Assembly: GCA_964520015.1 (NCBI GenBank)
Contig: CAZFMA010000038.1
Span: forward strand, 1-34,403
DNA from: an uncultured Candidatus Saccharibacteria bacterium
GTDB lineage: Bacteria > Patescibacteriota > Minisyncoccia > Phycocordibacterales > UBA2100
Length of the DNA stretch: 34,403 bases
Direction: 5' to 3'
Each line of letters opens with the position of its first letter. Position 1 is the stretch's first letter. The translations under genes and the position numbers were made by a program. A model generated the notes under the pieces. The model saw only the letters and a list, made by a program, of their open reading frames with translations, searched no databases and had not been told where the DNA came from. This document shows positions 1,403 to 18,497 of the stretch, piece after piece.

Positions 1403-2830
1403 TTAGCTGTTATATCTCGTATCAGGCTCGTACATCATAAGCGGAGAGGCACCCCGCTGCCAAGCTGCAATAATAGGGTCGGTAAAGCGCCACATAGCGC
1501 GTATTTCGTCGGTCGAGATAAAAAGCGTTCGGTCTCCCTCGATGCAATCTAAAAGCAGCTTCGCATACTCTTCCACGTAGGGCACGTGTTCACTCGTGTC
1601 GCGCATCATGTAGCGAAACTCGCGGCGTTCCGTTTCGAAGGTGAAGCCCAGCTTTTTCGCCCAGAACTCGATAAGTATTTCCTCGCGTGGCTCCATGCGG
1701 AAAATAATCTCATTTTTGTGGTGTGAGCCATCAGGCGGACAGAGGCACGGCTTCGGATGCCGCAAGGTAACCACAATTTCTTTCAGTGGTTCACCCATGC
1801 GCTTGCCACTCTCCATAATAATCGATACCCCCTTCCATTTGGGATCATCTAACTCCGCGCGAATCTTGAAGTACGTTTCAGTCTCTGAATCCGGTGCGAC
1901 GCCTGCAATGTCGCGATAGCCTTTGTATTGTGCGCGAGATGTCTTTTCCCCGACTTCGCTCGGAGAAAGGACGTGCAGCGTCTCCAGAATGGCCGCGCGC
2001 TTGGTCTGGATAGCCGTCGCGCGATACTCTGTCGGGTGCTCCATCGTGACGAGCGCCAGCATCTGGAGAATATGATTCTGGCCGACATCACGGAAGGTTC
2101 CCACGGCGTCATAAAACGGTCCTCGTGTCTCGACTCCGATTTTTTCCAAGAGCCTGAGGTTGATGCTCTCGATGAGATCTTTCCCCCACGGTATCTCAAA
2201 GAGATTGTTTGAAAAACGGAAAGTCAGGACATTTTGCAGCATCTCTTTGCCGAGGTAGTGATCAATGCGATAGATCTGCTGTTCGACAAAATGCTTTCCC
2301 ACGAGCTCATCGATCTCCTTTGCCGTTTCCAAATCCATGCCAAATGGCTTTTCGACAATGATGTGCGCCCACGCCTCTCCTTCTTTCAATTCCTTCGGAC
2401 CGCGCAGACCGCCGCGCGAAATCTGCTCTATGATGGTTTTATAGTGCTCCGGGGCGACGGCGAGATAAAAAAGTTTATTCGACGACATTCCCCATTCCCG
2501 ATCACTTTCTTCAAACGCGACCTTCAATCGATCGTAGCTTTCTGCATCTTCAAACTCTCCCTTCTGAAAACGGAATAGTGAGATGAATGAGGTGATAGTG
2601 TCCTTCGAAAGTGCCACCTCCGTGCGCTTTTCCAAAATTTCTCGTATATAAGTCTGAAATTCTTCGTCACTCCAATCGCGACGAGAGAACCCTATGATAC
2701 GAAACCTTTCGGGCAACTTGCCGTGGGTATGAAGATGATAGAGAGCGGGAATGACTTTTCTCTGCATCAAATCCCCCGTCGCCCCGAATGCTACGAATAT
2801 GGTGGGAAGGTTACTATTCGTGGCAACCAT
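1403..2830 (-). CDS. zwf: Glucose-6-phosphate 1-dehydrogenase
   Basis: 475-aa ORF with FGATGDLMQRK at the N-terminus, the RIDHYLGKE active-site motif, and typical length. Confidence 0.92.
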   Translation of the reverse strand: MVATNSNLPTIFVAFGATGDLMQRKVIPALYHLHTHGKLPERFRIIGFSRRDWSDEEFQTYIREILEKRTEVALSKDTITSFISLFRFQKGEFEDAESYDRLKVAFEESDREWGMSSNKLFYLAVAPEHYKTIIEQISRGGLRGPKELKEGEAWAHIIVEKPFGMDLETAKEIDELVGKHFVEQQIYRIDHYLGKEMLQNVLTFRFSNNLFEIPWGKDLIESINLRLLEKIGVETRGPFYDAVGTFRDVGQNHILQMLALVTMEHPTEYRATAIQTKRAAILETLHVLSPSEVGEKTSRAQYKGYRDIAGVAPDSETETYFKIRAELDDPKWKGVSIIMESGKRMGEPLKEIVVTLRHPKPCLCPPDGSHHKNEIIFRMEPREEILIEFWAKKLGFTFETERREFRYMMRDTSEHVPYVEEYAKLLLDCIEGDRTLFISTDEIRAMWRFTDPIIAAWQRGASPLMMYEPDTRYNS

Positions 2831-2839
2831 GTGTGGTTA

Positions 2840-3937
2840 TTATACACTTGAAAATAGACCTTTCTTAAATGACAGTTCGGCATTCAGAATGCCGCCGCCG
2901 GCTGCGCCACGAACAGTGTTGTGCGAGAGTGCGACAAATTTGTAATCGAATACCGGGCAAGGGCGAAGCCTCCCGACGGAGACGGCCATTGCTTTATCGG
3001 CATCACGATCCATTTTTGGCTGCGGACGATTCGGTTCATCGCGGTAAATGATTGGCTGTTTAGGAGCAAGCGGAAGGTCGAGTTCTTGTGGTACTCCACG
3101 GAATTTTGCCCACACTTCTTTGATCTCTTGAATCGAAGGCTTTTTACCTTTGAACGAGATATTTACGCATGCAAGATGGCCGTCGGAAACCGGTACACGA
3201 TTACATTGCGCAGAAATCGTCATGCCCGCAAAGGGAACAAACTCTCCTCCTTTGATATCACCCAAAATTTTGAGTGGCTCCTCTTCGGTCTTCTCTTCCT
3301 CGCCACCGATAAATGGAATGACATTGTCGATGACATCAAGCGAAGCAACGCCCGGATATCCTGCGCCCGAAACCGCCTGCATCGTGGTTACCGCCACTTT
3401 ATCGATCTCGTACCCGGCCTGCATAAGCGCGTAGAGTGGTGTGAGATAGCTTTGTAGACTGCAGTTGGGCTTCACGACGATAAATCCTTTCTTCCATCCT
3501 CGCGCCCTTTGCTGCTCAGGAATAATATTTAAATGATCCGCATTAATTTCCGCGATAAGCATCGGCACATTCGCAGTGTGGCGATGCGCGGAAGCATTTG
3601 AAAAGACAGGAATTCCTGCAGCAGCATACGAATCTTCCGCTGCCTTAATCGCCTCTTTATCAGGCATTTCAAACGCAGAAAATACGAGATGGCATTCACC
3701 TGCAGCTTTTGCTACATCAGCAACATCCTGCACGATGAGATTGGCAATCGCCTCTGGAAGCTCTCCTCCCACGAGCCATCCGCTTTTGAGGGCTTCTTTA
3801 TAACTCTTGCCAGCCGATTGCGGCGAAGCTGCTACATATGCGACGCGGAACCACGGATGGTTCGCGAGTAAACGAATATACTGCTGCCCGACCATGCCGG
3901 TAGCTCCCAAGACGCCAACGGGAATTTTTTTATTCAT
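2840..3937 (-). CDS. asd: Aspartate-semialdehyde dehydrogenase
   Basis: 365-aa ORF with the GATGMVGQ NAD(P)-binding motif, NCSLQS around the catalytic Cys, and SHNTVRGAAG near the C-terminus. Confidence 0.9.
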   Translation of the reverse strand: MNKKIPVGVLGATGMVGQQYIRLLANHPWFRVAYVAASPQSAGKSYKEALKSGWLVGGELPEAIANLIVQDVADVAKAAGECHLVFSAFEMPDKEAIKAAEDSYAAAGIPVFSNASAHRHTANVPMLIAEINADHLNIIPEQQRARGWKKGFIVVKPNCSLQSYLTPLYALMQAGYEIDKVAVTTMQAVSGAGYPGVASLDVIDNVIPFIGGEEEKTEEEPLKILGDIKGGEFVPFAGMTISAQCNRVPVSDGHLACVNISFKGKKPSIQEIKEVWAKFRGVPQELDLPLAPKQPIIYRDEPNRPQPKMDRDADKAMAVSVGRLRPCPVFDYKFVALSHNTVRGAAGGGILNAELSFKKGLFSSV

Positions 3938-3938
3938 A

Positions 3939-4072
3939 CCCAGCTAGTACAATTTGGCATCGTTTCTGCCGCTGATTAATTCTGCTTTCATACAAATACC
4001 GCGATTACCGAAACTAATCTCATTTCTGTGATCATACCGGTAACCAAGGAAATGCCAAATTGTACTGCTGGG
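3939..4072. mobile_element. MITE-like element, copy 1 (134 bp)
   Basis: The left arm is CCCAGCTAGTACAATTTGGCAT (3939-3960). The right arm is ATGCCAAATTGTACTGCTGGG (4052-4072), a 21/22 inverted repeat. It is flanked by the direct repeat CATA at 3935-3938 and 4073-4076. Confidence 0.65.
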
Positions 4073-4083
4073 CATAAGGTATT

Positions 4084-6591
4084 TTACATTGTAACAGCAG
4101 CCGTGCGCAAAATATCGGCAAACACGCCTGCAGCTGTGACCTCCGCGCCCGCACCTGGTCCTTGAATGACGAGTGGCGATTTTTGATATCGCTCGGTGAA
4201 GAAGGCGATGATGTTGTCATTGCCATAGAGCACGTAGAAAGGATGGAGTGCATCCACTGCCTGCAAGCTCACGCTCGCTTTGCCCTTGTTCAGCGTCGCG
4301 ACATAACGAAGTACTTTGCCGCTTTTCTCCGCGGCACGCTTCTTTGTCTCAAATATATGATCTTCCTTTTTCAACTGCTCGAAAAACTTTTCTACGGTCG
4401 GCGCTTTGCGGGCGCGCTCCGAGAGCAAGCTCTGTACTTTTACATCCTTCAGCTTCAGCGGTATTCCCATATCACGCGCAAGAATGAGAATCTTCCGTGC
4501 GACATCCATGCCACTCAAGTCATTGCGAGGATCGGCATCGGCGAATCCAAGTTTGCGTGCTTCCATCACAATATCGCTAAAGGCTCGCGTGCCCTTAAAA
4601 TTGTCGAAGACATAACTCAAGGTGCCTGAAAGCACAGCCTCGATACGCGTCACACGGTCTCCCGAAAGGAGAAGATCCTTCAGAGTTCCCAGTACCGGCA
4701 ATCCTGCACCAACGTTGGTCTCGTACAAGAATTTAACTCCATATTTTGAAGCAGCGGTTTTGAGTGCGAGGTAGCGCTCATACGAACCGGAATTCGCGGA
4801 CTTATTAGGCGTCGCGATCGATACACCAGCACGAAGCACATCGATATAACGCGCGGCGATTTCTTCGCTCGTTGTACAGTCCACAAAGACGCTGTTGGGT
4901 AAATCCATTGCTTTCATGTTCTCGATGAACGTCCGGATATTCATTTTTGTTTTCGATCCTTTCAATTGTTTCTGCCAGTCTTCCGCTGGTATACCGCCGT
5001 TGTCGTCGATGATCATGCGGGATTCGTCAGCAAGCCCGATCAAACGAACTACGTATCCGTGGTCTCGTTCCAGGGCTTCCGCTTGTCTGGCGATTTGTTT
5101 TAGAAGTGCGGCACCCACAAGGCCAGTATCCACCATAAAGACATTAATGATGACCTGTTCCGGCGAGAAGAACGCAGCATGAACGGCGTTCAGGGCTTTA
5201 ATCGAGTCTTCCTTTTTGATCACGATGGAGATGTTCAACTCCGAGGCACCCTGGGCGATCGCGACGATGTTGATACCGTTTTGACCGATCGTCTGGAAGA
5301 ACCGCCCTGCGATACCGCGTCTGCTTTTCATCCCTTCGCCGACAATAGAAAGGATAGAGAGATCGTCGGTGATGATCACAGGGTCGATGAGACGTGATTG
5401 GAGTTCAAGTACAAATTCTTCCTCGATCGCCTCCCGTGCTTTCTCCGCTTCACTCGTGGTAACCACGAGCGAGATCGAATGCTGCGATGAGGCTTGTGTA
5501 ATCAAAATGACGTTCACCTTTGCACGGGCAAGAGAACCAAAGAGTCTTCCAGAAGCTCCTCGCACACTTGAGAGGCCGCTCCCCTCCACTTGTATCATCG
5601 AAATATTGTTGACCGATGTAATGCCTTTGATGTGAGTCTCCAAGACTTCTGTCTTTTTGCTTACGATCGTGCCCAATGCATCGGGCTCAAATGTATTTTT
5701 GATATGGATGGGAATGTTGCTTTCCATTGCAGGACGCATAGTCGGCGGATGCAAGACTTTCGCGCCAAAATATGACATCTCGGCTGCTTCGAGATAACTC
5801 ATGGAGCGAATCGGAAGCGCGTCTTTGACTTTGCGCGGATCGGCGGTCATAACGCCCGAGACATCGGTCCAGATTTCAATTGAACGTGCTTTGAGCGCTG
5901 CGCCAAGAATCGAGGCGCTGTAATCGCTCCCCCCGCGCCCCAGCGTCGTCGTTGCCCCGCGCGGAGTCGATGCAATGAATCCGGTGACAATTTGGAGTTT
6001 GGGGTGTTTCCTGAAATACGCTCGGATTGCTTTGTTTGTGACGGGGAAATTAACTATCGCTTCGCCGAAGGTTTCGTCGGTTGTGATGATAGAGCGTGCA
6101 TTCAAATATTCGGCGCGCACCCCGCGATCCGAGAGTGCATCGGTAAGAAGGTGCGCTGAGAGCCGCTCGCCATAACTCATGATGTAATCCAATGCGCCGA
6201 GGGAAAGCTCGCTCACGAGATATACTCCGCGCGCCAAACCTTCGAGCGAATCAACAAGTGCCTTAATGTTAGCAATTGCTTCCGCACGATTGCGCTCCGA
6301 GATAAGATCATTTGCTACCTTGATGTGTCGCTTCTCTATTTCACGAATGAGTTTTTTGTAGGAATCATCTTTTACTGCAGCGCGAGACGCAATATCTATC
6401 AATTGGTCTGTAACGCCGCTCATCGCGGAGACGACTACCGCTGCGACTCGTGCATCCTGCTGGGGCTTTTTCACGATGCTGATGACGCGTCGAATTGCCT
6501 CCGTGGACCCCATGGAAGTACCCCCAAATTTGAGGACTTTTATTCCCTTTGGCGAAGAACCGGAAGGCGTAATTGCCTTTGTTCCTTTCAT
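4084..6591 (-). CDS. thrA: Bifunctional aspartokinase / homoserine dehydrogenase
   Basis: 835-aa ORF. It has the KFGGTS aspartokinase N-terminus, a central ACT-like region, and a C-terminal homoserine dehydrogenase region (GPGAGAEVTAAGV). Confidence 0.9.
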   Translation of the reverse strand: MKGTKAITPSGSSPKGIKVLKFGGTSMGSTEAIRRVISIVKKPQQDARVAAVVVSAMSGVTDQLIDIASRAAVKDDSYKKLIREIEKRHIKVANDLISERNRAEAIANIKALVDSLEGLARGVYLVSELSLGALDYIMSYGERLSAHLLTDALSDRGVRAEYLNARSIITTDETFGEAIVNFPVTNKAIRAYFRKHPKLQIVTGFIASTPRGATTTLGRGGSDYSASILGAALKARSIEIWTDVSGVMTADPRKVKDALPIRSMSYLEAAEMSYFGAKVLHPPTMRPAMESNIPIHIKNTFEPDALGTIVSKKTEVLETHIKGITSVNNISMIQVEGSGLSSVRGASGRLFGSLARAKVNVILITQASSQHSISLVVTTSEAEKAREAIEEEFVLELQSRLIDPVIITDDLSILSIVGEGMKSRRGIAGRFFQTIGQNGINIVAIAQGASELNISIVIKKEDSIKALNAVHAAFFSPEQVIINVFMVDTGLVGAALLKQIARQAEALERDHGYVVRLIGLADESRMIIDDNGGIPAEDWQKQLKGSKTKMNIRTFIENMKAMDLPNSVFVDCTTSEEIAARYIDVLRAGVSIATPNKSANSGSYERYLALKTAASKYGVKFLYETNVGAGLPVLGTLKDLLLSGDRVTRIEAVLSGTLSYVFDNFKGTRAFSDIVMEARKLGFADADPRNDLSGMDVARKILILARDMGIPLKLKDVKVQSLLSERARKAPTVEKFFEQLKKEDHIFETKKRAAEKSGKVLRYVATLNKGKASVSLQAVDALHPFYVLYGNDNIIAFFTERYQKSPLVIQGPGAGAEVTAAGVFADILRTAAVTM

Positions 6592-6632
6592 ACGTTTACG
6601 TTAACACACATATATCAAAGTGTCAAAGTTCC

Positions 6633-7919
6633 CTAGGCTTTTGCGGCCTCTTTTGCCTCTTCCTCCCCTGTCGCCATCTCCACTTCCGCGACAATCGCCT
6701 GTGGCTCATGCTTCTTCTGGAGAGAGAGTGCAGTATACGCTGCCGCGAGGATCGCGGTTATGCCGCCTACAGCAAGTGCCCACCGAGCATTGACTACCTC
6801 TCCAATGAGACCGATAACAGGAGCCCCGATGACGGTCGAGCCGAAAATAACCGTCGACCAGAGCGACATAATTCGTCCACGCATAGAAGCGAGAGATTCG
6901 AGTTGAATCATCGTGCTGCCGAGCGATGTTACGTTAACGGAGAAAAATCCGACAAAAATCATCCCGATGATCGCAAGCGAGAGCGTAGGCATTATGGCGG
7001 TGAAGCAAATCGCAATGCCAAAGAGCAAGGCTGCTATCACGAATTCCCGCAGTGTGATCGTCGGCCGACTCGCCGAGTATAATCCGCCGGCAACAGAGCC
7101 TGCTCCCATCGCAGAGAGAAGCGCAGCATAATCCGCCGCAGTTCCATAGAAAGTGTTTTGAGCGAGAAGGGAGAGCGAAACTTGAAATTCATAGGTGAAA
7201 GTACCGATTGCGAGCATTGCAAGGAGAATAGTCCGGATGAGCGGCACCGACGCGGCATAGATAATCCCTGCAAACAGATTGGTAATAGGGGCAGAATCTT
7301 TTTCTTCATGATGTAATTCACTGGGTCGGATGCGTGAGAGCATAAAAAGCACGGCGCAGAATGAAACGGCGTTCGCTGCAAAACAAAAAGCGATCCCCAC
7401 TGTTGCAATGAGAGAACCCGCGATCAAGGGTCCGATCGCACGAGCGACGTTTGCATTTGTAGAGTTCAGTGCAACGGCATTTCGTACATTATCTCTGCCC
7501 ACCATTTCATGGACGAAGGTCTGACGTGCGGGATTATCGATCGTAGCGACAACTCCAATTATCAACGCTAAGATGTAGAGCATCCAAATTTGAATGCTGC
7601 CGGTATACACAAGTATGCTGAGTATGAGCGCGAGAAGTGCAAGGGATGTTTGCGTCACATAGAGAATGTGGCGCTTGTTGAATTTATCAACAACAATGCC
7701 GGCAAACGGTCCACCAATAAGCATGGGCAAAAAGCGGAATGCGAGTACGGTCCCCAAGGCTACGCCAGAGCCGCTTAGCTGAAGCACGAGCCAGCTTAAG
7801 GCGACAATCTGCATCCACGTGCCGGCATTCGATAATGCCTGCCCTATAAAATAGAGACGGTAATTACGGACCTTAAGAGACGAAAACATCTGATGCCCCA
7901 ATTGCCGAATCGCGTTCAT
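6633..7919 (-). CDS. MFS transporter
   Basis: 428-aa ORF, hydrophobic throughout with about 12 predicted helices. The N-terminus (FRxLWxGQ-like, VRNYRLYFIGQALSNAGTWMQ) is typical of MFS_3/EntS-like exporters. Confidence 0.8.
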   Translation of the reverse strand: MNAIRQLGHQMFSSLKVRNYRLYFIGQALSNAGTWMQIVALSWLVLQLSGSGVALGTVLAFRFLPMLIGGPFAGIVVDKFNKRHILYVTQTSLALLALILSILVYTGSIQIWMLYILALIIGVVATIDNPARQTFVHEMVGRDNVRNAVALNSTNANVARAIGPLIAGSLIATVGIAFCFAANAVSFCAVLFMLSRIRPSELHHEEKDSAPITNLFAGIIYAASVPLIRTILLAMLAIGTFTYEFQVSLSLLAQNTFYGTAADYAALLSAMGAGSVAGGLYSASRPTITLREFVIAALLFGIAICFTAIMPTLSLAIIGMIFVGFFSVNVTSLGSTMIQLESLASMRGRIMSLWSTVIFGSTVIGAPVIGLIGEVVNARWALAVGGITAILAAAYTALSLQKKHEPQAIVAEVEMATGEEEAKEAAKA

Positions 7920-7926
7920 ATCAACA

Positions 7927-10599
7927 TTACGGAGTCCGCAAGCGTGCGTACGCCTTACGCACCTCTTCGGCGACGAGTATGGACGAAGCTACTATGATTA
8001 TCGTTACCCATTCGTAGAGCGTAAGCGGCGTGGTGTGCAGAATTGATTGAAGGAATGGCGTATGGAGCGCCAAAATTTGGAGCGCGATGACGATCGCCGT
8101 CGCGCCGATCAGGTACTTGTTGGAGAAAAGATTCATTTGGAATATCGACTTCGTGTCGGAGCGGCAATTCCACGCGTTGAACCATTGGAAGACGGCAAGC
8201 GTGGTAAGCGAGATCGTCCATGCTTTCGTCATGTCTGCACCCACGTAATCCTTGAAGAGATAGAGGGTTCCGATTGTCATAACGATCGCAACGAGCGCGA
8301 TCCTTCTGAACATGGCACCATCCACGAGGTATTTCTTTGGCTTCGCAAATGCCCGGCTCAGCAGGCCCTGCTCTTTCGGCTCCATCGCAAGCCCCATGTC
8401 GAGGAATCCATCCGTGACAAAATTGAGCCAGATGATTTGCGCCGCTAGCAAGGGTATGGGAAGCCCGAGAAGCATCGCGCCGATGAGGGTGAGCGTCTCC
8501 CCTGCGCTTGTGCTGAAGAGGTAGAGAATGACTCTCCGTATTGATTGATAAATACCGCGGCCCTCCTCGACTGCGGAGACAATGCTGCCGAAATTGTCGT
8601 CGAGGAGAATGATGTCCGAGGCTTCTTTGGCAACTTCGGTTCCCATTTTGCCCATCGAGACCCCGAGATCGGCGGCGACAAGCGATGGCGCGTCATTTAC
8701 CCCATCACCTGTCATCGCGATAATTTCTCCTCGTTTTTTATAGCCATTGATGAGGCGCAGCTTGTGTTCTGGCGTAACGCGCGCAAAGATCGATGTTTTC
8801 GCAAGTTTCTCCGCGAGCTCAAGATCGGAGAGAGCATCAATCTCGGCTCCCGTGAGGACGAGATCACCTGTCTGATAGATTCCTGCCTCTTTCCCTATTG
8901 CACGCGCCGTAAGAGAGTGATCCCCGGTTATCATAACGACTCGGATTCCAGCTTCTTTCGCACGGCTCATCGCGTCTCGCACTTCTACGCGAAGCGCATC
9001 CTTCATGCCGTATAAACCGAGGAATGTGAGTTTGCCGATGTGCTCCGGCTGCAGTGTCGAAATGTGCGAATTATCGTCGATAGCAAATGCAATCACGCGC
9101 AAACCCTTCGAAGACATCTCGGTAACTGCCTTTTCAATGATTTCTCGTTCCCTCTCCCCAAGCGAATGGTGCGCGCCTTCGCGCCATATCGTGTGAGAGA
9201 GCTTCAAGATTTCTTCCGGCGCGCCCACGATCGTGAGAAAATTCCTGCCTTCGTGATTGTGGAGCGTGCCGTGATACTTAAGCTTGTAATCGAAAGGAAG
9301 TTCTCCCAGCATAGGCGAGCCGTGCTCCAATGTGTCTTTGTGATATCCAACCTTTTGGGCGAAAGCGAAAAGCGCCGCCTCTGTGGGATCGCCCGAGACG
9401 CGCCAGCGCGATTCTTCTTCGGAGTAGAGCGCGCGACCAGTCGCCGAAAAGGCCGCGCACTTACCCGCATACAAAAGCCCCGGACTTTCCGCGGGATCAA
9501 TCACGACATCGCTGCGCCGGATTTCACCTTTCGGCTCGTATCCTACTCCGTCAATTCGATACGACTCTCCGCCAACCCATACTTCCTGAACGACGAGTTC
9601 GTTGCGCGTGATCGTGCCCGTCTTGTCGACTGCTATCACATTTGCCTGTCCCAAGGCTTCGACTGCCTGGAGCTCTTTGACTAGTGCGTTGCGCTTCGAC
9701 ATTCTCCACACTCCCGTCGCCAGCACCAAGGTCATTACGATGGGCAAGCCTTCAGGAATGATAGAAACGGCGAGCGAAACCACGGTTGAGAACATCGTAC
9801 GGATCGAATATCCCTGGAAAAGTCCCAGAAGAAAAATGAGAAGCCCGACGGCAAAAACGACAACGATGATAGCGCGCGAAAGACGTTCGATATTCGATTT
9901 CAAAGGAACGTCTGAGCTGATCGATGAAACCGCCTGTGCGATTTTGCCGATGGCTGTTTTCACACCCGTTGCAACGACAATCGCCTTGCCGCTCCCCGCG
10001 ACAATAGTCGTCCCTTTCCACACCATGTTGGTCTGATCCGCAGTTTGCCGATCTTTTCCAGTGAGTACTCCGTCGATCTTATCTACCGGCTCTGATTCTC
10101 CCGTGAGGGAAGATTCGTCGGTACGAAGATTTCGCGCAAGAATAAGCCGTGCATCCGCCGCAACTTTCGCTCCCTCCGGAAGAATGAGGATGTCTCCCAC
10201 TACTACTTCACTATCCGGAATGATTAATTCTTTTTCCTCACGCAGGACAATTGCCTTCGTCTCGACGAGACGCCTGAGCGCGCGAAGCGTATTTTGTGCT
10301 TTGCCTTCCTGAAAGGTTCCGACGATCGCATTAAAAAGCAACACCGCAAGGATGATCCCTCCGTCTGCAATTTCTCCCATGGCAAGGACAATTCCGGCGG
10401 CTCCGAGAAGCAGATAGATAAGCGGACTTTTGAACTGGCGCAAAAATATTTGCCACACCGTATCGGGCTTTTTCTCGGGCAACGTGTTTGCGCCACCCTC
10501 GCGCAAGCGCCGTGTCACTTCTCCCACACTCAATCCAAACTCGCTGGAGCGAAGCTCATCAAGCACCAACGGTACCGGTCGTGTATACCAATTCGTCAC
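7927..10599 (-). CDS. P2-type cation-transporting P-type ATPase (Ca2+/cation pump-like)
   Basis: 890-aa ORF with the motifs TGES, PEGLP (TM4), DKTGTIT, MITGDH and GDGVNDAPSL. The apparent start codon is GTG at 10599-10597. Confidence 0.9.
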   Translation of the reverse strand: MTNWYTRPVPLVLDELRSSEFGLSVGEVTRRLREGGANTLPEKKPDTVWQIFLRQFKSPLIYLLLGAAGIVLAMGEIADGGIILAVLLFNAIVGTFQEGKAQNTLRALRRLVETKAIVLREEKELIIPDSEVVVGDILILPEGAKVAADARLILARNLRTDESSLTGESEPVDKIDGVLTGKDRQTADQTNMVWKGTTIVAGSGKAIVVATGVKTAIGKIAQAVSSISSDVPLKSNIERLSRAIIVVVFAVGLLIFLLGLFQGYSIRTMFSTVVSLAVSIIPEGLPIVMTLVLATGVWRMSKRNALVKELQAVEALGQANVIAVDKTGTITRNELVVQEVWVGGESYRIDGVGYEPKGEIRRSDVVIDPAESPGLLYAGKCAAFSATGRALYSEEESRWRVSGDPTEAALFAFAQKVGYHKDTLEHGSPMLGELPFDYKLKYHGTLHNHEGRNFLTIVGAPEEILKLSHTIWREGAHHSLGEREREIIEKAVTEMSSKGLRVIAFAIDDNSHISTLQPEHIGKLTFLGLYGMKDALRVEVRDAMSRAKEAGIRVVMITGDHSLTARAIGKEAGIYQTGDLVLTGAEIDALSDLELAEKLAKTSIFARVTPEHKLRLINGYKKRGEIIAMTGDGVNDAPSLVAADLGVSMGKMGTEVAKEASDIILLDDNFGSIVSAVEEGRGIYQSIRRVILYLFSTSAGETLTLIGAMLLGLPIPLLAAQIIWLNFVTDGFLDMGLAMEPKEQGLLSRAFAKPKKYLVDGAMFRRIALVAIVMTIGTLYLFKDYVGADMTKAWTISLTTLAVFQWFNAWNCRSDTKSIFQMNLFSNKYLIGATAIVIALQILALHTPFLQSILHTTPLTLYEWVTIIIVASSILVAEEVRKAYARLRTP

Positions 10600-10612
10600 G
10601 CTCTATATTCTA

Positions 10613-10740
10613 CCCCGTCAGTAGATGTTGGCGATGCGCGAGGCGCAGTTGGTAGGGAAATCTTGAATGGCATCGTTGTTTGTGAACAAGGAAACTATAT
10701 TATTCTCAGGAAGAAACTGTCGCCAACATTCACTGCGGGG
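10613..10740. mobile_element. MITE-like element, copy 2 (128 bp)
   Basis: The left arm is CCCCGTCAGTAGATGTTGGCGA (10613-10634). The right arm is TCGCCAACATTCACTGCGGGG (10720-10740). It is flanked by TCTA at 10609-10612 and 10741-10744. The arms match copy 1 at 14 of 22 positions, with the same 22/21-nt arm asymmetry. Confidence 0.65.
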
Positions 10741-10762
10741 TCTACCCCGTTTTATCAGCAGT

Positions 10763-11023
10763 TTAGTGTTCAGGATCGAGCGGGCCGACAATTTTGAGTA
10801 TCCATTTTTCTAGTTTTTCGAAAGCTGCGTGAACTTTGGGAAAGCGTCTCGTATGAGATTCAATCCACGTGCGTATGCGAGAGGATGCGATTGAGAGAAG
10901 AATAAGACCAATCGCGATAAACAATAATCCCTGCAGAAACGGAAGCGCGAGGCCGATAATGCCCACAATGATAAAGAATATTCCGACCACTATAAGCGCA
11001 GTTTTTTTGATGTGTCTTTTCAT
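10763..11023 (-). CDS. Small two-helix membrane protein, possibly DUF454/YbaN-like; family not firmly recognised
   Basis: The track ORF is 10763-11053. I prefer the ATG at 11023 (MKRHIKKTALIVVGIFFIIVGIIGLALPF...) because the upstream ATG at 11053 lies inside MITE copy 3. Confidence 0.5.
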   Translation of the reverse strand: MKRHIKKTALIVVGIFFIIVGIIGLALPFLQGLLFIAIGLILLSIASSRIRTWIESHTRRFPKVHAAFEKLEKWILKIVGPLDPEH

Positions 11024-11136
11024 CCCGTTAGAAGCAGGACGCGGAAATACCATGTCCCGCGTCTACCGTATTATCGTTGATAAGGGTTGATTGCATACGC
11101 AAGATAATGATGAGTCGTCCGCGGCTTCTAACGGGA
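11023..11136. mobile_element. MITE-like element, copy 3 (114 bp)
   Basis: The arms are TCCCGTTAGAAGC (11023-11035) and GCTTCTAACGGGA (11124-11136), with an extra GGACG/CGTCC pairing just inside. It is flanked by TTCA at 11019-11022 and 11137-11140. The boundary is ambiguous by 1 nt. Confidence 0.6.
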
Positions 11137-11856
11137 TTCATACACAGCGTCTGCTGAGTGTACACCTTCTTTCTGCTTTTTGCGCACCGCACGCACGCCG
11201 AGAAAGACGATCCCTGCCACGATGATCCACTGCAAGAGCGCCGTGCTCTCTTTGGGATCCGGCAACACAAAGCCGAGGATGTAGACCTGTATCGGTATCC
11301 AGAATGCTATTGCGACGAAAGAGAGCATTAGCGTTTTCAAAAATCCGGCGCGCGCGATGCCCATGCAGATATTTGTAATCGCAAGTATGTTCGGATGTAT
11401 TCCCGAGAAAAATACGGCCCAGCGGCCGCGCCGATCAAGCCACGCCTGCATGGAGTGCACCATGTCCTGTGATCCGAGTTTAAGTAAAATTCTATAGAAA
11501 CCTTCCCTTCCGAGCCAATAATTGATAGCTGTCGCGGTAAGCACACTCGCCCACGCGATAAGGACAACAATGCCGAGCGCGGGAATGCTTCTGTCAGAAA
11601 CGAGGATTGCCAAGATGACAACGAGAGAGCCCGGGAAATAGAAACTCACCATAAAAAGGCTTTCGATAAGCGCAGAGACGTAGAGTGTGATGAGGCCGTA
11701 GCGGTCAAAAAATCCTTTGGCAATTTCTGCAAGATAGTCTACTCCAGGAAGCCCCAAGGGCTCGCGTACAAAGATCATGATGATTGCAAAAATCGCAACA
11801 GCAAAATACAAAGCGCCGGGAGCAAGATACGCAGTAAGTCGTTTCAGCTTTTCCAT
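11128..11856 (-). CDS. DedA/SNARE-associated family membrane protein
   Basis: 242-aa polytopic ORF with DedA-like segments (ESLFMVSFYFPGSLVV, INYWLGREG). Its TAG stop codon (11128-11130) lies inside the right arm of MITE copy 3. Confidence 0.75.
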   Translation of the reverse strand: MEKLKRLTAYLAPGALYFAVAIFAIIMIFVREPLGLPGVDYLAEIAKGFFDRYGLITLYVSALIESLFMVSFYFPGSLVVILAILVSDRSIPALGIVVLIAWASVLTATAINYWLGREGFYRILLKLGSQDMVHSMQAWLDRRGRWAVFFSGIHPNILAITNICMGIARAGFLKTLMLSFVAIAFWIPIQVYILGFVLPDPKESTALLQWIIVAGIVFLGVRAVRKKQKEGVHSADAVYESR

Positions 11857-11928
11857 GTATGTCTTTGGTCCTGCAACTGACGTGTGTGCAGAGAGATTAT
11901 TACTGTAACAGGAAAGAGAGGCTCTATA

Positions 11929-12087
11929 CTACACGCGCGCACCTTTATAAATACACTTGATGCACTGTTTCTGGTTTTCGCGCGTTTTGATGTACTTGTT
12001 TTTGCAGCCACAGACTGAAACCTTGGTAGTGCTGGGCTTCTCTATCCATCGTCCATTCTTCTGAAATGTTTTCGTCGGGATATGCAT
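11929..12087 (-). CDS. Small Cys-rich hypothetical protein (CxC...CxxC, possible zinc ribbon)
   Basis: Internal ATG at 12087 gives MHIPTKTFQKNGRWIEKPSTTKVSVCGCKNKYIKTRENQKQCIKCIYKGARV. The longer track ORF (to 12198) would cross a strong hairpin and overlap the upstream gene. Confidence 0.35.
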   Translation of the reverse strand: MHIPTKTFQKNGRWIEKPSTTKVSVCGCKNKYIKTRENQKQCIKCIYKGARV

Positions 12088-12133
12088 GGGGCGCAACAAT
12101 ACCACACTTCCACGATAAATCAATGATGTAGTT

Positions 12134-12164
12134 CGGGGGCGGAGTCTCCCTGACTCCGCCCCCG
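12134..12164 (-). terminator. GC-rich hairpin downstream of the 12176-12670 gene
   Basis: The sequence is CGGGGGCGGAGT-CTCCCTG-ACTCCGCCCCCG, a perfect 12-bp stem with a 7-nt loop. It starts 12 nt after the stop codon. There is no clear U-tract on the minus strand. Confidence 0.4.
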
Positions 12165-12175
12165 TTTGTAGAGGT

Positions 12176-12670
12176 CTAGCCTGACCCCCTGGGCCCATGC
12201 ACGGCCCTCACGGTAAGGAGGAATGCCCAGAGGCACACCATCCCGACGACGAGGCTCACCATCGCCTCAATCGATACTCCCTTTGGGCCGGGAGTTCCTC
12301 TGCTGAGTTGGAACCACAGCATGACGACGAGACTCACGAGTGCGCCCAGCAAGTAGGCAATGCCCGCATAGATGTCGCCCCGGCGGAGCTCCTTCCAGAC
12401 TCGCACCCTGTCTTGGGGATAGGCTCTGCGGTAGAGCTTCCAGCGTCCCAAGGCAGCGGATAGTGACAGGAAGAAAATACCCACAACCATCTCGGGCTGT
12501 GATACGCTCCCGTCAGCTGCCCATCTGCCTAGAGCCAGAACGCCCAAGAAGAAGGCAAGGGCGGTGACTACGTTCAGAACATGACGGAACCAGTTGGGCG
12601 GTGTAACGTATATCGACCAGCGACCCCGAAGTTCTTCAACGACTTCTCGAGACCGAGAACCCATGCTCAT
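12176..12670 (-). CDS. Hypothetical four-helix membrane protein, high-GC compositional outlier
   Basis: 164-aa ORF with four hydrophobic segments and a repeated ALGRW motif. Hand counts give 40/60 and 37/60 G+C for 12181-12300. Flanking lines give 22/60 (11941-12000) and 28/60 (12721-12780). Confidence 0.6.
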   Translation of the reverse strand: MSMGSRSREVVEELRGRWSIYVTPPNWFRHVLNVVTALAFFLGVLALGRWAADGSVSQPEMVVGIFFLSLSAALGRWKLYRRAYPQDRVRVWKELRRGDIYAGIAYLLGALVSLVVMLWFQLSRGTPGPKGVSIEAMVSLVVGMVCLWAFLLTVRAVHGPRGSG

Positions 12671-12781
12671 ATCCGTTCTCCCGTTGCGAGCGTTGCACGA
12701 TCTTAATCAACTATTTCAATTAAACTCCGTTCGGTCAAATAGGTCTCGCTTCACGTGCTGTATCCTGCTATACATTCCCTT

Positions 12782-14032
12782 ATGAGTAGCGCGGGTAAAA
12801 AATACGACGTTATCGTAGTCGGTGGCGGTCCCTCTGGCATGATGGCGGCCGGGCGGGCGGCTGAGCGCGGGAAATCGGTCTTACTCATTGAGAAAAACGC
12901 GGCATTAGGGAAAAAGCTCGACATCACAGGTGGAGGCAGGTGCAATATCACCAATGCCGAATTGGATGTGCATGTACTGCTCAAAAACTATGGCGCTGCC
13001 CAGCAATTCCTCTACTCCCCGTTCTCGCAGTTCGGCATGCAGAGCACGTTTGATTTTTTTACCGCTCGCGGATTGCCGCTCGTCGTGGAAGCTAGGAAGC
13101 GTGCTTTCCCGACGACCCAAAAAGCTCCCGATGTGACCGCAGTACTTAAGAAATATCTCGCGCGGGTGGGAGTCAAAGTTCTCACAAAAACCACGGTACG
13201 AAAACTTCTGTCAGAAAATGGCCGCGTGGTTGGGGCTGTTACATCTAGCGGCACCTATACGGCCGACAATTTCATTATCGCCACGGGCGGTTCATCCCAC
13301 CCAGAGACCGGCTCCACGGGAGATGCATTCGGTTGGCTCACGGAGCTCGGGCACAGCATCGTCCCTTCAACGCCAACCCTTGTGCCACTTCGCGTACGCA
13401 ATGAATGGATCAAGAAACTCGCGGGCATTACCTTGCCGGAAATGAAAATTACTTTCTTTGTAGATGGGAAACGACACTTCGCAAAAAAGGGTCGGCTACT
13501 TTTCACACACTTCGGACTTTCGGGTCCTCTTATCTTAAACACTGCTCACTTGGTCCGCGATCTATTACTATCGGGCGGAGTGGTCACTACTACGATTGAT
13601 ACGTTTCCCGACACTGATTTCGCCAATCTTGAAAAGCGCGTCCTCGCGACAATTGAAACAAATAAAAATAAGAATTTCAAAAATGTTATCGACGAGATCG
13701 TGCCTGCAGGAATGGGCCGCGCGTATGCATCGCTTTTGAATTTGCCTGATCCGACCCTCAAAGCTCATAGTTTGAGCAAGGAAGATCGCAAACGATTTGT
13801 GCATCTATTGAAAGGTGCGCCCGCGACGATCGAAGGACTCATGGGATACGATCGTGCGATCGTCTCCGACGGTGGAGTGCCACTTACTGAAGTCGATACA
13901 CGCACCATGCGCTCACTCAAAGTCCCGAATCTCTATTTCACCGGCGACGTCCTGCATATCAACCGCCCCTCCGGCGGCTACTCGCTTCAACTCTGCTGGA
14001 CCACCGGCTTCGTCGCCGGAAATAGTATTTAG
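12782..14032 (+). CDS. NAD(P)/FAD-dependent oxidoreductase, HI0933/YhiN (BaiN-like) family
   Basis: Contains YDVIVVGGGPSGMMAAGRAAERG, ITGGGRCNITN, and C-terminal GGYSLQLCWTTG. I prefer the ATG at 12782 (MSSAGKKYDV...) over the GTG at 12755. Confidence 0.85.
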   Translation: MSSAGKKYDVIVVGGGPSGMMAAGRAAERGKSVLLIEKNAALGKKLDITGGGRCNITNAELDVHVLLKNYGAAQQFLYSPFSQFGMQSTFDFFTARGLPLVVEARKRAFPTTQKAPDVTAVLKKYLARVGVKVLTKTTVRKLLSENGRVVGAVTSSGTYTADNFIIATGGSSHPETGSTGDAFGWLTELGHSIVPSTPTLVPLRVRNEWIKKLAGITLPEMKITFFVDGKRHFAKKGRLLFTHFGLSGPLILNTAHLVRDLLLSGGVVTTTIDTFPDTDFANLEKRVLATIETNKNKNFKNVIDEIVPAGMGRAYASLLNLPDPTLKAHSLSKEDRKRFVHLLKGAPATIEGLMGYDRAIVSDGGVPLTEVDTRTMRSLKVPNLYFTGDVLHINRPSGGYSLQLCWTTGFVAGNSI

Positions 14033-14169
14033 CGAGGTTTTATCTTTTCGTCCTTAATCTTATTGAGTATCTTTTCTATTTTCCCAAGGCTCTGAGCCTC
14101 AAGAATCGATACGGGAATCGCTTCTGGGCCTTTTATATTCTTTCCTTGATTCTTGTGGGTTTTTAGTGG
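14029..14169 (-). pseudogene. Displaced or duplicated fragment of the obg 3' end
   Basis: The 65-aa ORF tail PVSILEAQSLGKIEKILNKIKDEK aligns with the Obg C-terminus PISILDEESMTEVKKILNKIKDGR. The DNA shares a 27-nt identical core plus diverged flanks. A 1-nt indel shifts the original stop codon out of frame. Confidence 0.55.
14049..14075. repeat. Direct repeat core, copy 1 (CGTCCTTAATCTTATTGAGTATCTTTT)
   Basis: This 27-mer is identical to the one at 14972-14998. An adjacent TTATCTT is also shared. Confidence 0.9.
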
Positions 14170-14238
14170 CATATATTCCTTACCTCTCACGGTCGTATAT
14201 GATAAGGAATATTGAACGAGTGTCATTTCGTTGTAATT

Positions 14239-14811
14239 CTATACATTGAAATGATGCCTCAGATGCTTGTCGTTCTCCACCTGTTCAACAATCAAATACA
14301 AAGCTGCAGCACCGATCTTTAGATCAGCCTTGAGCAGAGCAATGAGATCCTCGCAATCGTGTGGATACACCCACACGCTGTCCTGCAAACGATAAAATCC
14401 GCACGATTGCATGAACATTCGAAGCTTATCGCGAACGGTTCTGCGTTTTTCCGGTATATCGAATATAATAATTCGCCAACGTTTGTCCCATCGACGGGGA
14501 ACCGCTAGTAGGCCAAACTTATGGCTTTCGAGTATGAGCGCCCGTTTCCCCGCTTCGGTAATACGCGCATAACGAGCACCGTTCTTCTCAACGAAGATGA
14601 CGTGTCTTTTGCTCGCGAGACGAGAAAGTGCTGTTTTTGCTTGGTTTGTAAAGCGATACTTGTTGCGCCCGAAACCCCCAAGAAGTTGTAGCGCATTGGG
14701 TGCTGCCATTGCCACAAGGAGAACCCCGGCAACACCGATAGTTGCAAGCACCGCATGCTGTATCTGGCCTCGTCGTCTCCGTTTCCGAACTTCAATTTCA
14801 AGCACGCCCAT
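14239..14811 (-). CDS. PaaX-like transcriptional regulator: N-terminal wHTH plus a Cas2-like middle domain, lacking the PaaX C-terminal domain
   Basis: The 190-aa segment WDKRWRIIIFDIPEKRRTVRDKLRMFMQSCGFYRLQDSVWVYP parallels E. coli PaaX WDGKWLLLL...KKQLIWQGFGALAPSLMASP and the Cas2 ferredoxin-like pattern. Confidence 0.75.
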   Translation of the reverse strand: MGVLEIEVRKRRRRGQIQHAVLATIGVAGVLLVAMAAPNALQLLGGFGRNKYRFTNQAKTALSRLASKRHVIFVEKNGARYARITEAGKRALILESHKFGLLAVPRRWDKRWRIIIFDIPEKRRTVRDKLRMFMQSCGFYRLQDSVWVYPHDCEDLIALLKADLKIGAAALYLIVEQVENDKHLRHHFNV

Positions 14812-14850
14812 ATTCCTTAATTATCACGATCGGATGTTTTAAGGAATATG
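14809..14850 (-). promoter_or_regulatory. Perfect 12-bp inverted repeat over the start codon and SD of the PaaX-like gene (candidate operator or translational hairpin)
   Basis: CATATTCCTTAA (14809-14820), an 18-nt spacer, then TTAAGGAATATG (14839-14850). On the mRNA strand the proximal arm contains AAGGA followed by AUG. Confidence 0.45.
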
Positions 14851-14963
14851 ACGTATGTGTATAAGTAATCGAGGGAGCAATAGAGGAATCAACAGAGGCA
14901 CCGACAAATAACGGATGCAATGAAATTCGGCGCCGACAATCAATTTGCTAATCGGCCCGTGAC

Positions 14964-15926
14964 TTATCTTCCGTCCTTAATCTTATTGAGTATCTTTTTC
15001 ACTTCCGTCATGCTCTCCTCGTCGAGGATAGAAATGGGAACGGGTTTTAATTTCTTTTTCTTGAGCGCCTGCATCTTTTCCTTTACTTCTTCCGGCGTAA
15101 CTGTATCTGTTTTTGTGAGAAATACAAATTCTATTTTTTTCAAGAGTTGCGAATTATAGGTCTCAAGTTCTTTGCGAATGATCTCATAGTCGCGAACCGG
15201 ATCATCCGACTCGGCGGAAATAAGATGAAAGAGGACTTTCGTGCGTTCAATGTGTTTCAGAAATTTCACGCCCAAGCCCTTTCCTCCCGACGCCCCTTCT
15301 ATCAGTCCCGGAATATCGGCAAGAATGAGTTCATAGTACGCGCCGAGGTGCGGCTCGAGCGTGGTAAAGGCATAAGCGGCGACGCGGCTCTTGGCGGCCG
15401 TGAGTTCATTGAGAAGACTCGATTTACCGGCGTTCGGAAGGCCGACAAATCCAACGTCCGCGATAAGACGAAGCTCAAGCCGATAGTGACCCACGTCGCC
15501 TTTCAAACCGGATTCAGCTTCCATCGGGGTTGTGTTGACGGCGGAACGGAATTTGAAATTCCCTCTTCCCCCAATCCCCGCCCCCGCAGCCAGTATGCGC
15601 TGCCCAACCGTTTCCATTTCTTGCACAAAGCCGGTGCTTATATTCTGTATCCGCGTCCCGATAGGAATCTTGAGTACAAGATCTTCTCCCCCGCGACCGT
15701 CGAGAAATTGCCCACGACCGTCCTTTCCTTTCTCCGCTTCTATGACTTTTTTGTGTGCGAATGCGCCGAGCGCGCTCGGATTTGAGACTCCCTCGAAATA
15801 GACGCTGCCGCCGTTGCCGCCGTCCCCTCCTGTGGGCCCGCGCGCGAGGCGCACTTTCTGAAAGGCTACGGCACCCCTGCCGCCATCCCCTGCATGGACT
15901 TCAATCGTTATTTCATCTACGAGCAT
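14964..15926 (-). CDS. obg: GTPase Obg (short form without a C-terminal OCT domain)
   Basis: 320-aa ORF. It has the Gly-rich Obg fold N-terminus (GDGGRGAVAF, GGDGGNGGSVYF) and the G motifs GLPNAGKSSL, DIPG and TKTD. Confidence 0.92.
   Translation of the reverse strand: MLVDEITIEVHAGDGGRGAVAFQKVRLARGPTGGDGGNGGSVYFEGVSNPSALGAFAHKKVIEAEKGKDGRGQFLDGRGGEDLVLKIPIGTRIQNISTGFVQEMETVGQRILAAGAGIGGRGNFKFRSAVNTTPMEAESGLKGDVGHYRLELRLIADVGFVGLPNAGKSSLLNELTAAKSRVAAYAFTTLEPHLGAYYELILADIPGLIEGASGGKGLGVKFLKHIERTKVLFHLISAESDDPVRDYEIIRKELETYNSQLLKKIEFVFLTKTDTVTPEEVKEKMQALKKKKLKPVPISILDEESMTEVKKILNKIKDGR
14972..14998. repeat. Direct repeat core, copy 2, inside the obg 3' end
   Basis: This 27-mer is identical to the one at 14049-14075. 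Confidence 0.9.
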
Positions 15927-15972
15927 GAAGGCATGCTAGCACAAACACAAAAAATCTGGTTACATCTATGGT

Positions 15973-16128
15973 ATGCCTGACACAGAACACCAAGAGTGGC
16001 TCGAAAACAAAAAAGCTCGCGAGGCTGCAATAAAACCTAAATCCCCGCCCGTGCCTTCGAAGAAGGTGGGTGACGAAAAAAAAGAGGAACCTGACGATGG
16101 GGAGAACCGTCAGTGGGCTTATAATTGA
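15973..16128 (+). CDS. Possible small hydrophilic protein (51 aa)
   Basis: Own translation: MPDTEHQEWLENKKAREAAIKPKSPPVPSKKVGDEKKEEPDDGENRQWAYN. It is below the track cutoff and divergent from obg. No family was recognised. Confidence 0.25.
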   Translation: MPDTEHQEWLENKKAREAAIKPKSPPVPSKKVGDEKKEEPDDGENRQWAYN

Positions 16129-16246
16129 CCCCGTTAGAGATAGGAAGCAATGCTTCCATCCGAACTCACTACGTTTTTGAGCATCAAAATGACCTCAGTT
16201 ACGCCGAATTTTCCTTCACAAAAGACTTCCCAAATCTCTAACGGGG
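16129..16246. mobile_element. MITE-like element, copy 4 (118 bp)
   Basis: The arms are CCCCGTTAGAGAT (16129-16141) and ATCTCTAACGGGG (16234-16246), with further GGAAG/CTTCC pairing inside. It is flanked by TTGA at 16125-16128 and 16247-16250. Confidence 0.65.
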
Positions 16247-17212
16247 TTGATCGACTCTGACCGCTCCGACTTTCTTTTGAAGTTCGAGGGAAACAACGTC
16301 AAAAAGCCGCGCCTGCACATCTGCAGGAGTATCCGTTTCGAGCGGCACATCTGCCATCACCACCGCATCGATCTCGCGAGCCAGCGTGGAAGTTGTAAAT
16401 AATTTCCGAAGGATAAATCGATACCACGGTAGCGTGAGGACCACACGATCCGGCGCGGCCGACGCTTGAGGGTCAATTGCAATGCGAACGGGAAATGTCT
16501 TTGGAATAAAGCCGATCAGATAGCCTCGTGAGCGATAGACTATTTCAAACTTTGTCGCGCCAAATGTCAGCTCTTCTATATTACTGTCTGCAAGTATGGC
16601 TGAGGCACCGAAGAGGCCGAAGCTCCGACCAGGCGAGAATCGATACGCCCCGGAACGATATCCACTGCTATAATCTTCCAGAATATTTCTAAAGCTATCA
16701 TTGCCTCGAAGTGCGGCACGCAATTTCGCTGCATTGATGGTGGTCCCCCCGCCGACAGAAGCGGCAGCATTTGAACCTCCGGCACCGGATCCAGGTTCGG
16801 CAGGTGCGTTCGGATCCCACGTCCCGCCGGTAATTGCCCCTTGTGTGACGAGGAGCTCAAAGAGCGTGTCTAGGGCACTATCCCCCGATCCACCACCGGA
16901 GCCAAGAGAGATATCGCCACTGGTCGACGTACCACTGCCTCCAGAAGAACTACCGCCCTGACCTGTAGTTCCACTTCCAGCACTTCCTGATCCGCTTCCT
17001 CCTTGGCCCATGCCTCCTGTATCTGAACTTCCTCCGCTACTCCCGCCTCCACCCGGCACTGATCCACCACCAGATGGTTCATCGTCCGATGGGGGCTGCG
17101 GTACGCCATCACCTATTTCAATAACAACAGAGTCGTCGTAATAGTAGGCAGCAGCGAGACTTATAGTACCAAGAATGATAAACGACGAGAGGAGCGCGAC
17201 AGCAAAACGCAT
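16238..17212 (-). CDS. Secreted hypothetical protein with a long Gly/Ser-rich linker
   Basis: 324-aa ORF. It has an N-terminal signal-like helix (MRFAVALLSSFIILGTISLAAA), about 100 aa of G/S/T low complexity, and a C-terminal globular region with no family I recognise. Its stop codon TAG lies in MITE copy 4. Confidence 0.7.
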   Translation of the reverse strand: MRFAVALLSSFIILGTISLAAAYYYDDSVVIEIGDGVPQPPSDDEPSGGGSVPGGGGSSGGSSDTGGMGQGGSGSGSAGSGTTGQGGSSSGGSGTSTSGDISLGSGGGSGDSALDTLFELLVTQGAITGGTWDPNAPAEPGSGAGGSNAAASVGGGTTINAAKLRAALRGNDSFRNILEDYSSGYRSGAYRFSPGRSFGLFGASAILADSNIEELTFGATKFEIVYRSRGYLIGFIPKTFPVRIAIDPQASAAPDRVVLTLPWYRFILRKLFTTSTLAREIDAVVMADVPLETDTPADVQARLFDVVSLELQKKVGAVRVDQPR

Positions 17213-18374: not shown

Positions 18375-18497
18375 ATACGTGGAGTATACACCGTAGTAGA
18401 TTTTGGCAATAGTTTCTTCCTGCGCTTCGCGCGTTGCCAAAATTCACTACAGGGTATACACCCCCTACCCAAGCAAGAAAGCACTCATAAAACCGAC

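Follow-up and report, generated by a model that had tools for sequence, protein, structure and literature searches.

Among the MITEs (miniature transposable elements that end in inverted repeats), Correia, RUP and IS630-type elements duplicate TA, and for some MITEs, such as Correia and ERIC, we know of no cognate transposase. Bacterial MITEs residing in operons have been reviewed, including the Neisseria Correia elements (CREE), the enterobacterial ERIC/IRU, the pneumococcal RUP and the Geobacter Chunjie elements (PMC10969869, PMC3184786). The Rickettsia palindromic elements (RPEs) are mobile palindromes that can sit in frame in genes and add a peptide to the product (PMC10969869). Here we describe a family of short inverted-repeat elements in a 34,403-nucleotide contig of an uncultured Candidatus Saccharibacteria bacterium (CAZFMA010000038.1; the whole stretch is referred to as the window). 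The family resembles the Correia, ERIC, RUP and Chunjie elements in that the copies are non-coding, fall in the size range of ~100-150 bp, carry terminal inverted repeats and a short flanking duplication, are numerous and mostly intergenic, and form co-transcribed hairpins. The four intergenic copies c1-c4 (Table 1) are very probably MITEs, each inserted with a duplication of 4 bp.

The original prediction had placed four such elements between genes of the window and had read them as products of transposition rather than as a regulatory RNA; the elements, their arms and their flanking 4-mers were all confirmed by position. For the comparison with uninterrupted sites, the syntenic loci of three relatives (L002, L004 and L007) were used. 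At the thrA-asd junction, the site of c1, the gap is 3-9 nt and empty in all three relatives. The DUF454 and ATPase genes, between which c2 resides, are 26-33 nt apart in L002 and L004, with the empty site reading AAAACGCGGTAGAATAC, and the DedA and DUF454 genes (c3 site) overlap in the same two relatives, the site being again empty. In the alignments for c1, c2 and c3 the sequence of the window is obtained from that of the relative by adding the element and one further copy of the 4-mer. At the c4 site L002 reads ...GAGTCAATTAG..., and the window reads ...GATCAA, followed by the element and then by TCAATTAT. No elements of the c1-c4 type were found in the 21-kb loci of the relatives. All four elements are insertions at sites that are uninterrupted in syntenic relatives, and on this point the empty sites bear out the prediction. 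A further claim, that removal of each element together with one repeat collapses the intergenic gap to 8-31 nt or to overlapping gene ends, held for thrA-asd (8 nt), DUF454-ATPase (31 nt) and DedA-DUF454 (overlap) but failed for c4, whose removal leaves ~189 nt (192 nt in the relative). An apparent 124-nt insertion polymorphism between L131 and L132 was rejected, as it is a scaffold gap of Ns.

Given the empty orthologous sites, the elements cannot primarily be a conserved regulatory RNA. According to a rival explanation they would be conserved structured RNAs that act as cis-regulatory leaders or processing sites or as small RNAs, with the closing stem as the conserved part. This explanation can draw on the stability of the hairpins, which is well above that of shuffled sequences for the folded elements (z between -4.6 and -7.0), on the location of all copies of the window within co-directional, transcribed gene clusters, and on the nucleotide-level conservation of one copy, c6, between two genomes. 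It is contradicted by the complete absence of the elements from the orthologous loci of close relatives, by the 4-bp flanking duplications, by the unrelated neighbour genes, and by Rfam, where the whole window is without a match at the gathering threshold and the regions with c1-c5 are without one even at E<=1. Taken together, these observations make the explanation highly improbable. The interiors are without conservation, and therefore covariation could not be assessed; individual copies may have been exapted secondarily. Intrinsic terminators were also tried as a candidate and rejected, since the stems are not followed by a U-tract and terminator-like sites are not above the level of shuffled sequences. 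Riboswitches or leaders were likewise considered and rejected.

To the four intergenic copies two others, both beyond the interval of the original prediction, could be added, so that six copies with related arms lie within 34.4 kb. An unbiased scan for inverted-repeat structures (arms of at least 12 nt, exact 4-nt flanking repeat, span 24-170 nt) returned four in the window, compared to 0.075 per shuffled sequence. Three of these were c1, c3 and c4, and the fourth was an unrelated element at 18502-18652; the only reason that c2 escaped the scan is that its bulge sits in the outer 6 nt. The motif CCCGTYAG occurs 8 times in the window (1.7 expected), a number reached in 0 of 100 shuffles. The arms of subfamily A in the window (c1, c2 and c5) follow CCCNGY(T)AGTAN-ATTTGGCA, and the subfamilies A and B are linked via intermediate arms such as the right arm of c4 (CCCCGTTAGAGATTTGGGAA). 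The arms of c1 and c2 match at 14 of 20-22 positions and share the extra T, as had been noted before, and the dissimilarity of the interiors also stood, BLAST detecting zero similarity between them. The apparent 10-nt repeat at c2 arises because the native sequence ahead of the target (ACGSGG) resembles the end of the element. In another Kaiserbacteria genome (L131) two c1-type copies were found, at 9031-9166 (duplication TATG) and 16465-16598 (TACG), both at loci different from that of c1; ~35 nt are conserved at each end of these copies (CCCRGYYAGTACAATTTGGCATNGTNTCTGCCGC in subfamily A), around a middle part that has diverged. An element in a Saccharibacteria metagenome-assembled genome (MAG; L015) is 93% identical to the first 29 nt of c4.

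Table 1. Inverted-repeat elements in the window. Arms are given as left / right; the positions of both copies of the direct repeat are in parentheses.
Element	Position	Length and type	Location	Arms	Direct repeat	RNA fold
c1	3939-4072	134 nt, subfamily A	between thrA stop (4084) and asd start (3937)	CCCAGCTAGTACAATTTGGCAT / ATGCCAAATTGTACTGCTGGG; 22/21 nt, one extra T in left arm	CATA (3935-3938, 4073-4076)	-53.8 kcal/mol, z -6.95
c2	10613-10740	128 nt, subfamily A	between DUF454 gene and P-type ATPase gene	CCCCGTCAGTAGATGTTGGCGA / TCGCCAACATTCACTGCGGGG; 22/21 nt, extra T in left arm, AG/GA mismatch	TCTA (10609-10612, 10741-10744)	z -5.1
c3	11023-11136	114 nt, subfamily B	between DedA/VTT gene and DUF454 gene	TCCCGTTAGAAGC / GCTTCTAACGGGA; 13 nt, perfect	TTCA (11019-11022, 11137-11140)	
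c4	16129-16246	118 nt, subfamily B	3' end of hypothetical gene upstream of obg	CCCCGTTAGAGAT / ATCTCTAACGGGG; 13-14 nt, perfect	TTGA (16125-16128, 16247-16250)	
c5	18389-18454	66 nt, c2-type, ~62 nt deleted internally	divergent intergenic region	CACCGTAGTAGATTTTGGCAA / TTGCCAAAATTCACTACAGGG	TATA (18385-18388, 18455-18458)	z -5.2
c6	25886-25914	29 nt, two c3-type ends back to back, 5-nt loop	inside copper P-type ATPase gene	CCCCGTTAGAAGTGCCGCTTCTAACGGGG (whole element)		
CTAG-flanked element	18498-18656	second, unrelated inverted-repeat element		AGCATGTTTGAAAAC / GTTTTCAAACATGCT; 15-19 nt, perfect	CTAG on both sides	

The interior of c5 consists of the two ends of the c2 interior, in reverse complement relative to the arms, and the AGTAGA/AGTGAA asymmetry of the arms has the same orientation in both copies. 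The inverted interior between arms of unchanged asymmetry implies an inversion between the arms, or an exchange of arms, in the history of the family. It could also be taken to mean that the elements are invertible segments (invertons) or recombinase sites, with the inverted repeats serving as crossover sites, and the promoter-like hexamers inside c1 and c2 would fit such a function. However, empty sites and target duplications show insertion and not inversion in place, an invertase or recombinase gene is absent from the window and none recurs near the copies, promoter-like matches are region-wide no commoner than in shuffled sequences, and recombination between the arms readily accounts for a single inversion. 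We therefore give the inverton explanation very little credence.

Copies outside the window were sought in one genome per species (185,579 species) with the pattern CCCCGTTAGAR-N{70,100}-YTCTAACGGGG. At least 118 loci were found, compared to ~4 expected by chance (2.3e-13 per position x 31 spacings x 596 Gb). The assignment to lineages was made from the record titles of the matches listed, and the counts of copies, interiors, flanks and gene contexts given below refer to the same listed matches. Lineages of the candidate phyla radiation (CPR; Saccharibacteria, Parcubacteria groups, Kaiserbacteria, Kazan and others) contributed ~43 loci, Deltaproteobacteria/Desulfobacterota ~20, Planctomycetota ~15, Omnitrophota ~14 and Nitrospirota 5, and the remaining loci belong to Elusimicrobiota, Edwardsbacteria, Stahlbacteria and others. 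Several loci carry 2-4 copies each. Examples of assemblies rich in the elements are DX4.bin27 (JAJYUJ01), Thermodesulfobacteriota ORM2a (CP113000.1) and Kaiserbacteria GCA_001781685.1. Interiors are shared in small clusters (seven deltaproteobacterial copies, and five copies from Omnitrophota, Planctomycetota and Nitrospirota), and the presence of four identical copies in one MAG (DX4.bin27) points to recent activity. No copies were found by the scan in viral contigs. The family predicted from four copies is not private to the genome of the window: with c5, c6, the c1-type copies of L131 and the loci with c3/c4-type ends found here it extends over many phyla.

Full flanks were available for 121 elements. 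An identical 4-mer was present on both sides in 72 of them, compared to 0-5 in shifted controls, and a 5-bp duplication in none; duplication of the flanking 4-mer, predicted from the four copies of the window, is thus found at other copies as well. The base at position -4 is T in 88% and the base at -1 is A in 87% of the elements, and G is enriched at -5. The consensus of the duplication is TNNA, and the target is loosely palindromic, (G)TNNA(C). TAAA/TTTA, TGAA/TTCA and TCAA/TTGA are the duplications most often seen. CAAG, CGAG, TATG and TTAG also occur, which shows that all four bases are duplicated and that the T and the A do not belong to a fixed recognition sequence. The ends conform to the consensus CCCCGTTAGARAT of ~13 nt, with typical arms of 13-17 nt, and past position 13 from either end there is zero sequence conservation. 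The conserved unit is the outer ~13 nt only. The interiors are mostly unrelated among copies, there is no conserved open reading frame (ORF), and the length varies between 29 and 134 nt in the window and between 92 and 122 nt elsewhere. Minimal forms resembling c6 (24-57 nt) recur in other phyla, with a duplication in 7 of 21. The family displays four of the five features by which MITEs are defined: the elements are short and non-coding, share terminal inverted repeats, carry a duplication of fixed length with empty sites in relatives, and occur in multiple dispersed copies. The fifth, a cognate autonomous element with the same termini and a transposase gene, was not identified in the loci covered by the search described below.

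Two short conserved inverted modules around a variable spacer are also the architecture of REP/REPIN-like palindromes, which are spread by a RAYT-type (HUH/Y1) single-strand transposase. The existence of minimal hairpins of 24-30 nt and the failure to find a DDE transposase nearby would agree with such an origin. No target duplication results from HUH/Y1 transposition, as in IS200/IS605 and REP elements, whereas in 59% of the copies listed an exact duplication, 4 bp long and variable in sequence, is present. Moreover, the conserved module is not itself palindromic, and no RAYT-like gene family recurs near the copies. An origin of this kind is very unlikely. The GTTAGAR/YTCTAAC motifs suggested yet another candidate, integron attC-like sites: the elements end with GTTRRR- and YYYAAC-like motifs, and c1 and c2 have a one-base extrahelical asymmetry. 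In attC sites the order of the motifs is RYYYAAC...GTTRRRY. In the elements this order is reversed, the flanks are housekeeping genes without cassette arrays, and there is no integrase; the 4-bp duplications and the empty sites effectively refute an attC-like nature, whose probability we consider negligible.

The shortest copy of the window, c6, lies in frame within the copper P-type ATPase gene (23850-26033, minus strand), 11 residues past the HMBD domain (aa 2-28), in the His-rich linker after the N-terminal metal-binding domain. It adds 11 residues (PVRSGTSNGAG), which are missing in most orthologues including the closest one (91% identity), and a clean 4-bp duplication is absent. L131 has a 33-nt insert at the same codon (10103-10129), and a degenerate version of the insert is present in L134 (~10120-10160). 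Selection may maintain some copies, for example the c6 hairpin, for a function as DNA or RNA hairpins.

The genes of the window, as annotated with Pfam, form a series of housekeeping genes, almost all on the minus strand. They comprise a 6PGDH-like gene, G6PD, asd, thrA, an MFS transporter gene, and the P-type ATPase, DUF454 and DedA/VTT genes, and further along obg, the copper P-type ATPase gene, tgt and others; no tRNA was found in the window. The best homologues of Asd are from Candidatus Kaiserbacteria and other Parcubacteria (top identity 91%, in the closest relative). The window is assigned to a Candidatus Kaiserbacteria (CPR/Patescibacteria) genome. The closest relative (L001/L002, 11089-11895) has an extra hypothetical gene of 144-157 aa between asd and G6PD; this gene is absent from the window (2830-2840), where the two genes are spaced by 9 nt.

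With respect to genes, the elements are strongly intergenic: 14 of 122 lie in long open frames, compared to 72% of random positions. They are enriched at the 3' ends of genes. At 24 of 122 elements a long ORF has its stop codon within the duplication or uses the TAG of CCCCGT-TAG as its stop, compared to 3.8% for random positions. In the window the TAG of a c3 arm now stops the DedA/VTT gene (ORF 11128-11856), and that of a c4 arm now ends the hypothetical gene upstream of obg. By inserting, the elements open up the long intergenic gaps, place stems of 13-22 bp in polycistronic mRNAs and, at these two truncated gene ends, provide the TAG stop codon (CCCCGT-TAG).

Some details of individual insertions were also observed. 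At c1 the insertion duplicated the start codon of asd (3935-4075, minus strand). From the upstream ATG a frame of 43 codons runs through the element (MPSSTIWHF...DAKLY*); it shares the frame of the asd ATG and is closed by a TAG lying 6 nt ahead of that ATG. This TAG is made by the extra T that underlies the arm asymmetry of c1. It might be speculated that the 43-codon ORF preserves translational coupling with thrA. Sigma-70-like matches are present on the minus strand in c1 (TTGGCA-16-TATGAT, 10/12) and in c2 (TTGGCG-16-AATAAT), at 4031-4058 and 10694-10726, and the -35-like TTGGCR belongs to the arm of subfamily A. The c2 element is inserted in the TAGA of a conserved TAGAAT box that precedes the GTG start codon of the P-type ATPase gene by 7 nt (window 10599-10612; L002 3460-3480), and the duplication regenerates TAGAAT beside the gene. 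This box may be the -10 box of an mRNA with a short leader or none. Nested in the CTAG-flanked element (Table 1) is another inverted repeat, GC-rich and 18 nt long (18536-18553 / 18608-18625). The arm motif of the CTAG-flanked element, GTTTTCAAACAT, occurs once in the relative L007, at ~11329. This element may represent another MITE family, with CTAG as target.

On insertion, 4 bp of a weakly palindromic target are duplicated, and the process depends on the ~13-nt ends only. We infer that a DDE-type cut-and-paste transposase acts in trans. Such an enzyme would recognize each copy through the terminal inverted repeat and make a 4-bp staggered cut at the loosely palindromic target, and repair of the cut would duplicate the 4 bp. 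Pfam annotation revealed no transposase genes in the window. All-versus-all clustering of 1007 ORFs detected no recurrent gene family near the elements (the largest cluster comprised 7 of 118 loci), and the search of the loci with IS1380 transposases by tblastn, phmmer and hmmsearch found nothing. The search for an autonomous element covered the window, ~795 kb of loci and 80 IS1380 loci, and did not extend to a whole-genome search for ends 1-3 kb apart. The statement of the original prediction that the termini match no named insertion sequence (IS) family still stands, no autonomous element having been found.

Several observations weigh against the interpretation as MITEs mobilized by such a transposase. 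A perfect duplication is absent from 41% of the copies listed. Even inside one genome the interiors are mostly unrelated, an unusual situation among MITEs that descend from a single parent IS. The c6 insert is identical at 33/33 nt between the window and L131 while the surrounding gene is only 74% identical, so simple neutral decay of a dead transposon is no explanation. The ~795 kb that surround 149 copies are free of transposases, and no autonomous element with these termini was found; in the same loci unpaired termini occur at chance frequency and the neighbouring ORFs are housekeeping genes. The IS1380 elements examined (ISEcp1, IS1247-like, IS1678-like and 80 metagenomic elements of the IS1247 clade, a narrow part of the family) match the termini in CC(C) only and have mostly 5-bp duplications.

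Among the IS families, a duplication of 4-5 bp combined with ends starting with CC points to IS1380. In piggyBac elements the duplication is TTAA and the end is CCCTAGAAAGATA, similar to TNNA plus CCCCGTTAGAAAT of the elements described here. The eukaryotic piggyBac is related to the IS1380 family, its prokaryotic counterpart (PMC5718144). The likeness to IS1380 consists of the CC(C) ends and the short (4-5 bp) duplication, an agreement of low specificity. The ends of IS1380-family elements seen in this work were CCCACATTYCCC, CCTGAATAATTC and CCTAGATTCTACG, and for IS1247 a direct repeat of 5 bp has been described (PMC3281130). In the 244 kb examined CCCGTTAG was found only twice, neither time at an end. 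The protein search with ISEcp1 returned only relatives of >83% identity, the plasmid search and the metagenome scan yielded elements of the ISEcp1, IS1678 and IS1247 clades with ends unlike these, and among the elements examined no terminal repeat shared with an element encoding an IS1380-type (PF13701) transposase was found. As the comparison did not confirm it, movement by an IS1380/piggyBac-type transposase is a possible but doubtful attribution. It is rather unlikely that the enzyme is a transposase that has so far been assigned to no IS family, either bacterial piggyBac-like or entirely unrecognized, acting on the same ~13-bp end across at least 10 phyla. If a transposase does need only a ~13-bp end, almost any short sequence between two ends would be mobile, down to 29 nt.

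The genomes of CPR/Patescibacteria are small and tightly packed, and in this contig one MITE family accounts for four of the long intergenic gaps. The same family interrupts closely spaced gene junctions, provides stop codons and has become part of a protein. The 13-nt ends common to CPR, Omnitrophota, Planctomycetota, Desulfobacterota, Nitrospirota and further lineages point to horizontal spread and to a very broadly active transposition system, shared among uncultivated bacteria of groundwater and sediment. The elements mark horizontal exchange and give rise to annotation and assembly artefacts in MAGs. A full-text literature search of incomplete coverage found no paper in which MITEs are described from CPR, Patescibacteria or Saccharibacteria, and CCCGTTAG/CTAACGGG matched only primers and irrelevant text in the literature.

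The elements constitute a new, very widely distributed MITE (super)family. Each of the Correia, ERIC, RUP and Chunjie families is restricted to one genus or family, and the interiors of its copies are conserved, whereas the present elements occur in many phyla with only ~13 terminal nt conserved, and differ also in their terminal consensus and in the 4-bp TNNA duplication. Like the RPEs, c6 contributes residues to a protein; however, RPEs are ~100-150 bp long and often intragenic, whereas here few full-length copies (14 of the 122 listed) are in long frames and the in-frame copy is 29 nt. Stowaway/Tc1-mariner and Tourist/PIF-Harbinger elements are heterogeneous MITEs that share a short end and a duplication, have unrelated interiors and are mobilized in trans by transposases only distantly related to them. 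These superfamilies are eukaryotic with known transposase partners, whereas the family described here is bacterial. Its organization resembles that of the eukaryotic Stowaway and Tourist superfamilies more closely than that of the typical genus-restricted bacterial MITEs, and what is unusual about it is the phylogenetic breadth with identical ends of 11-13 nt, the unrelated interiors, and the minimal forms of 29 nt.

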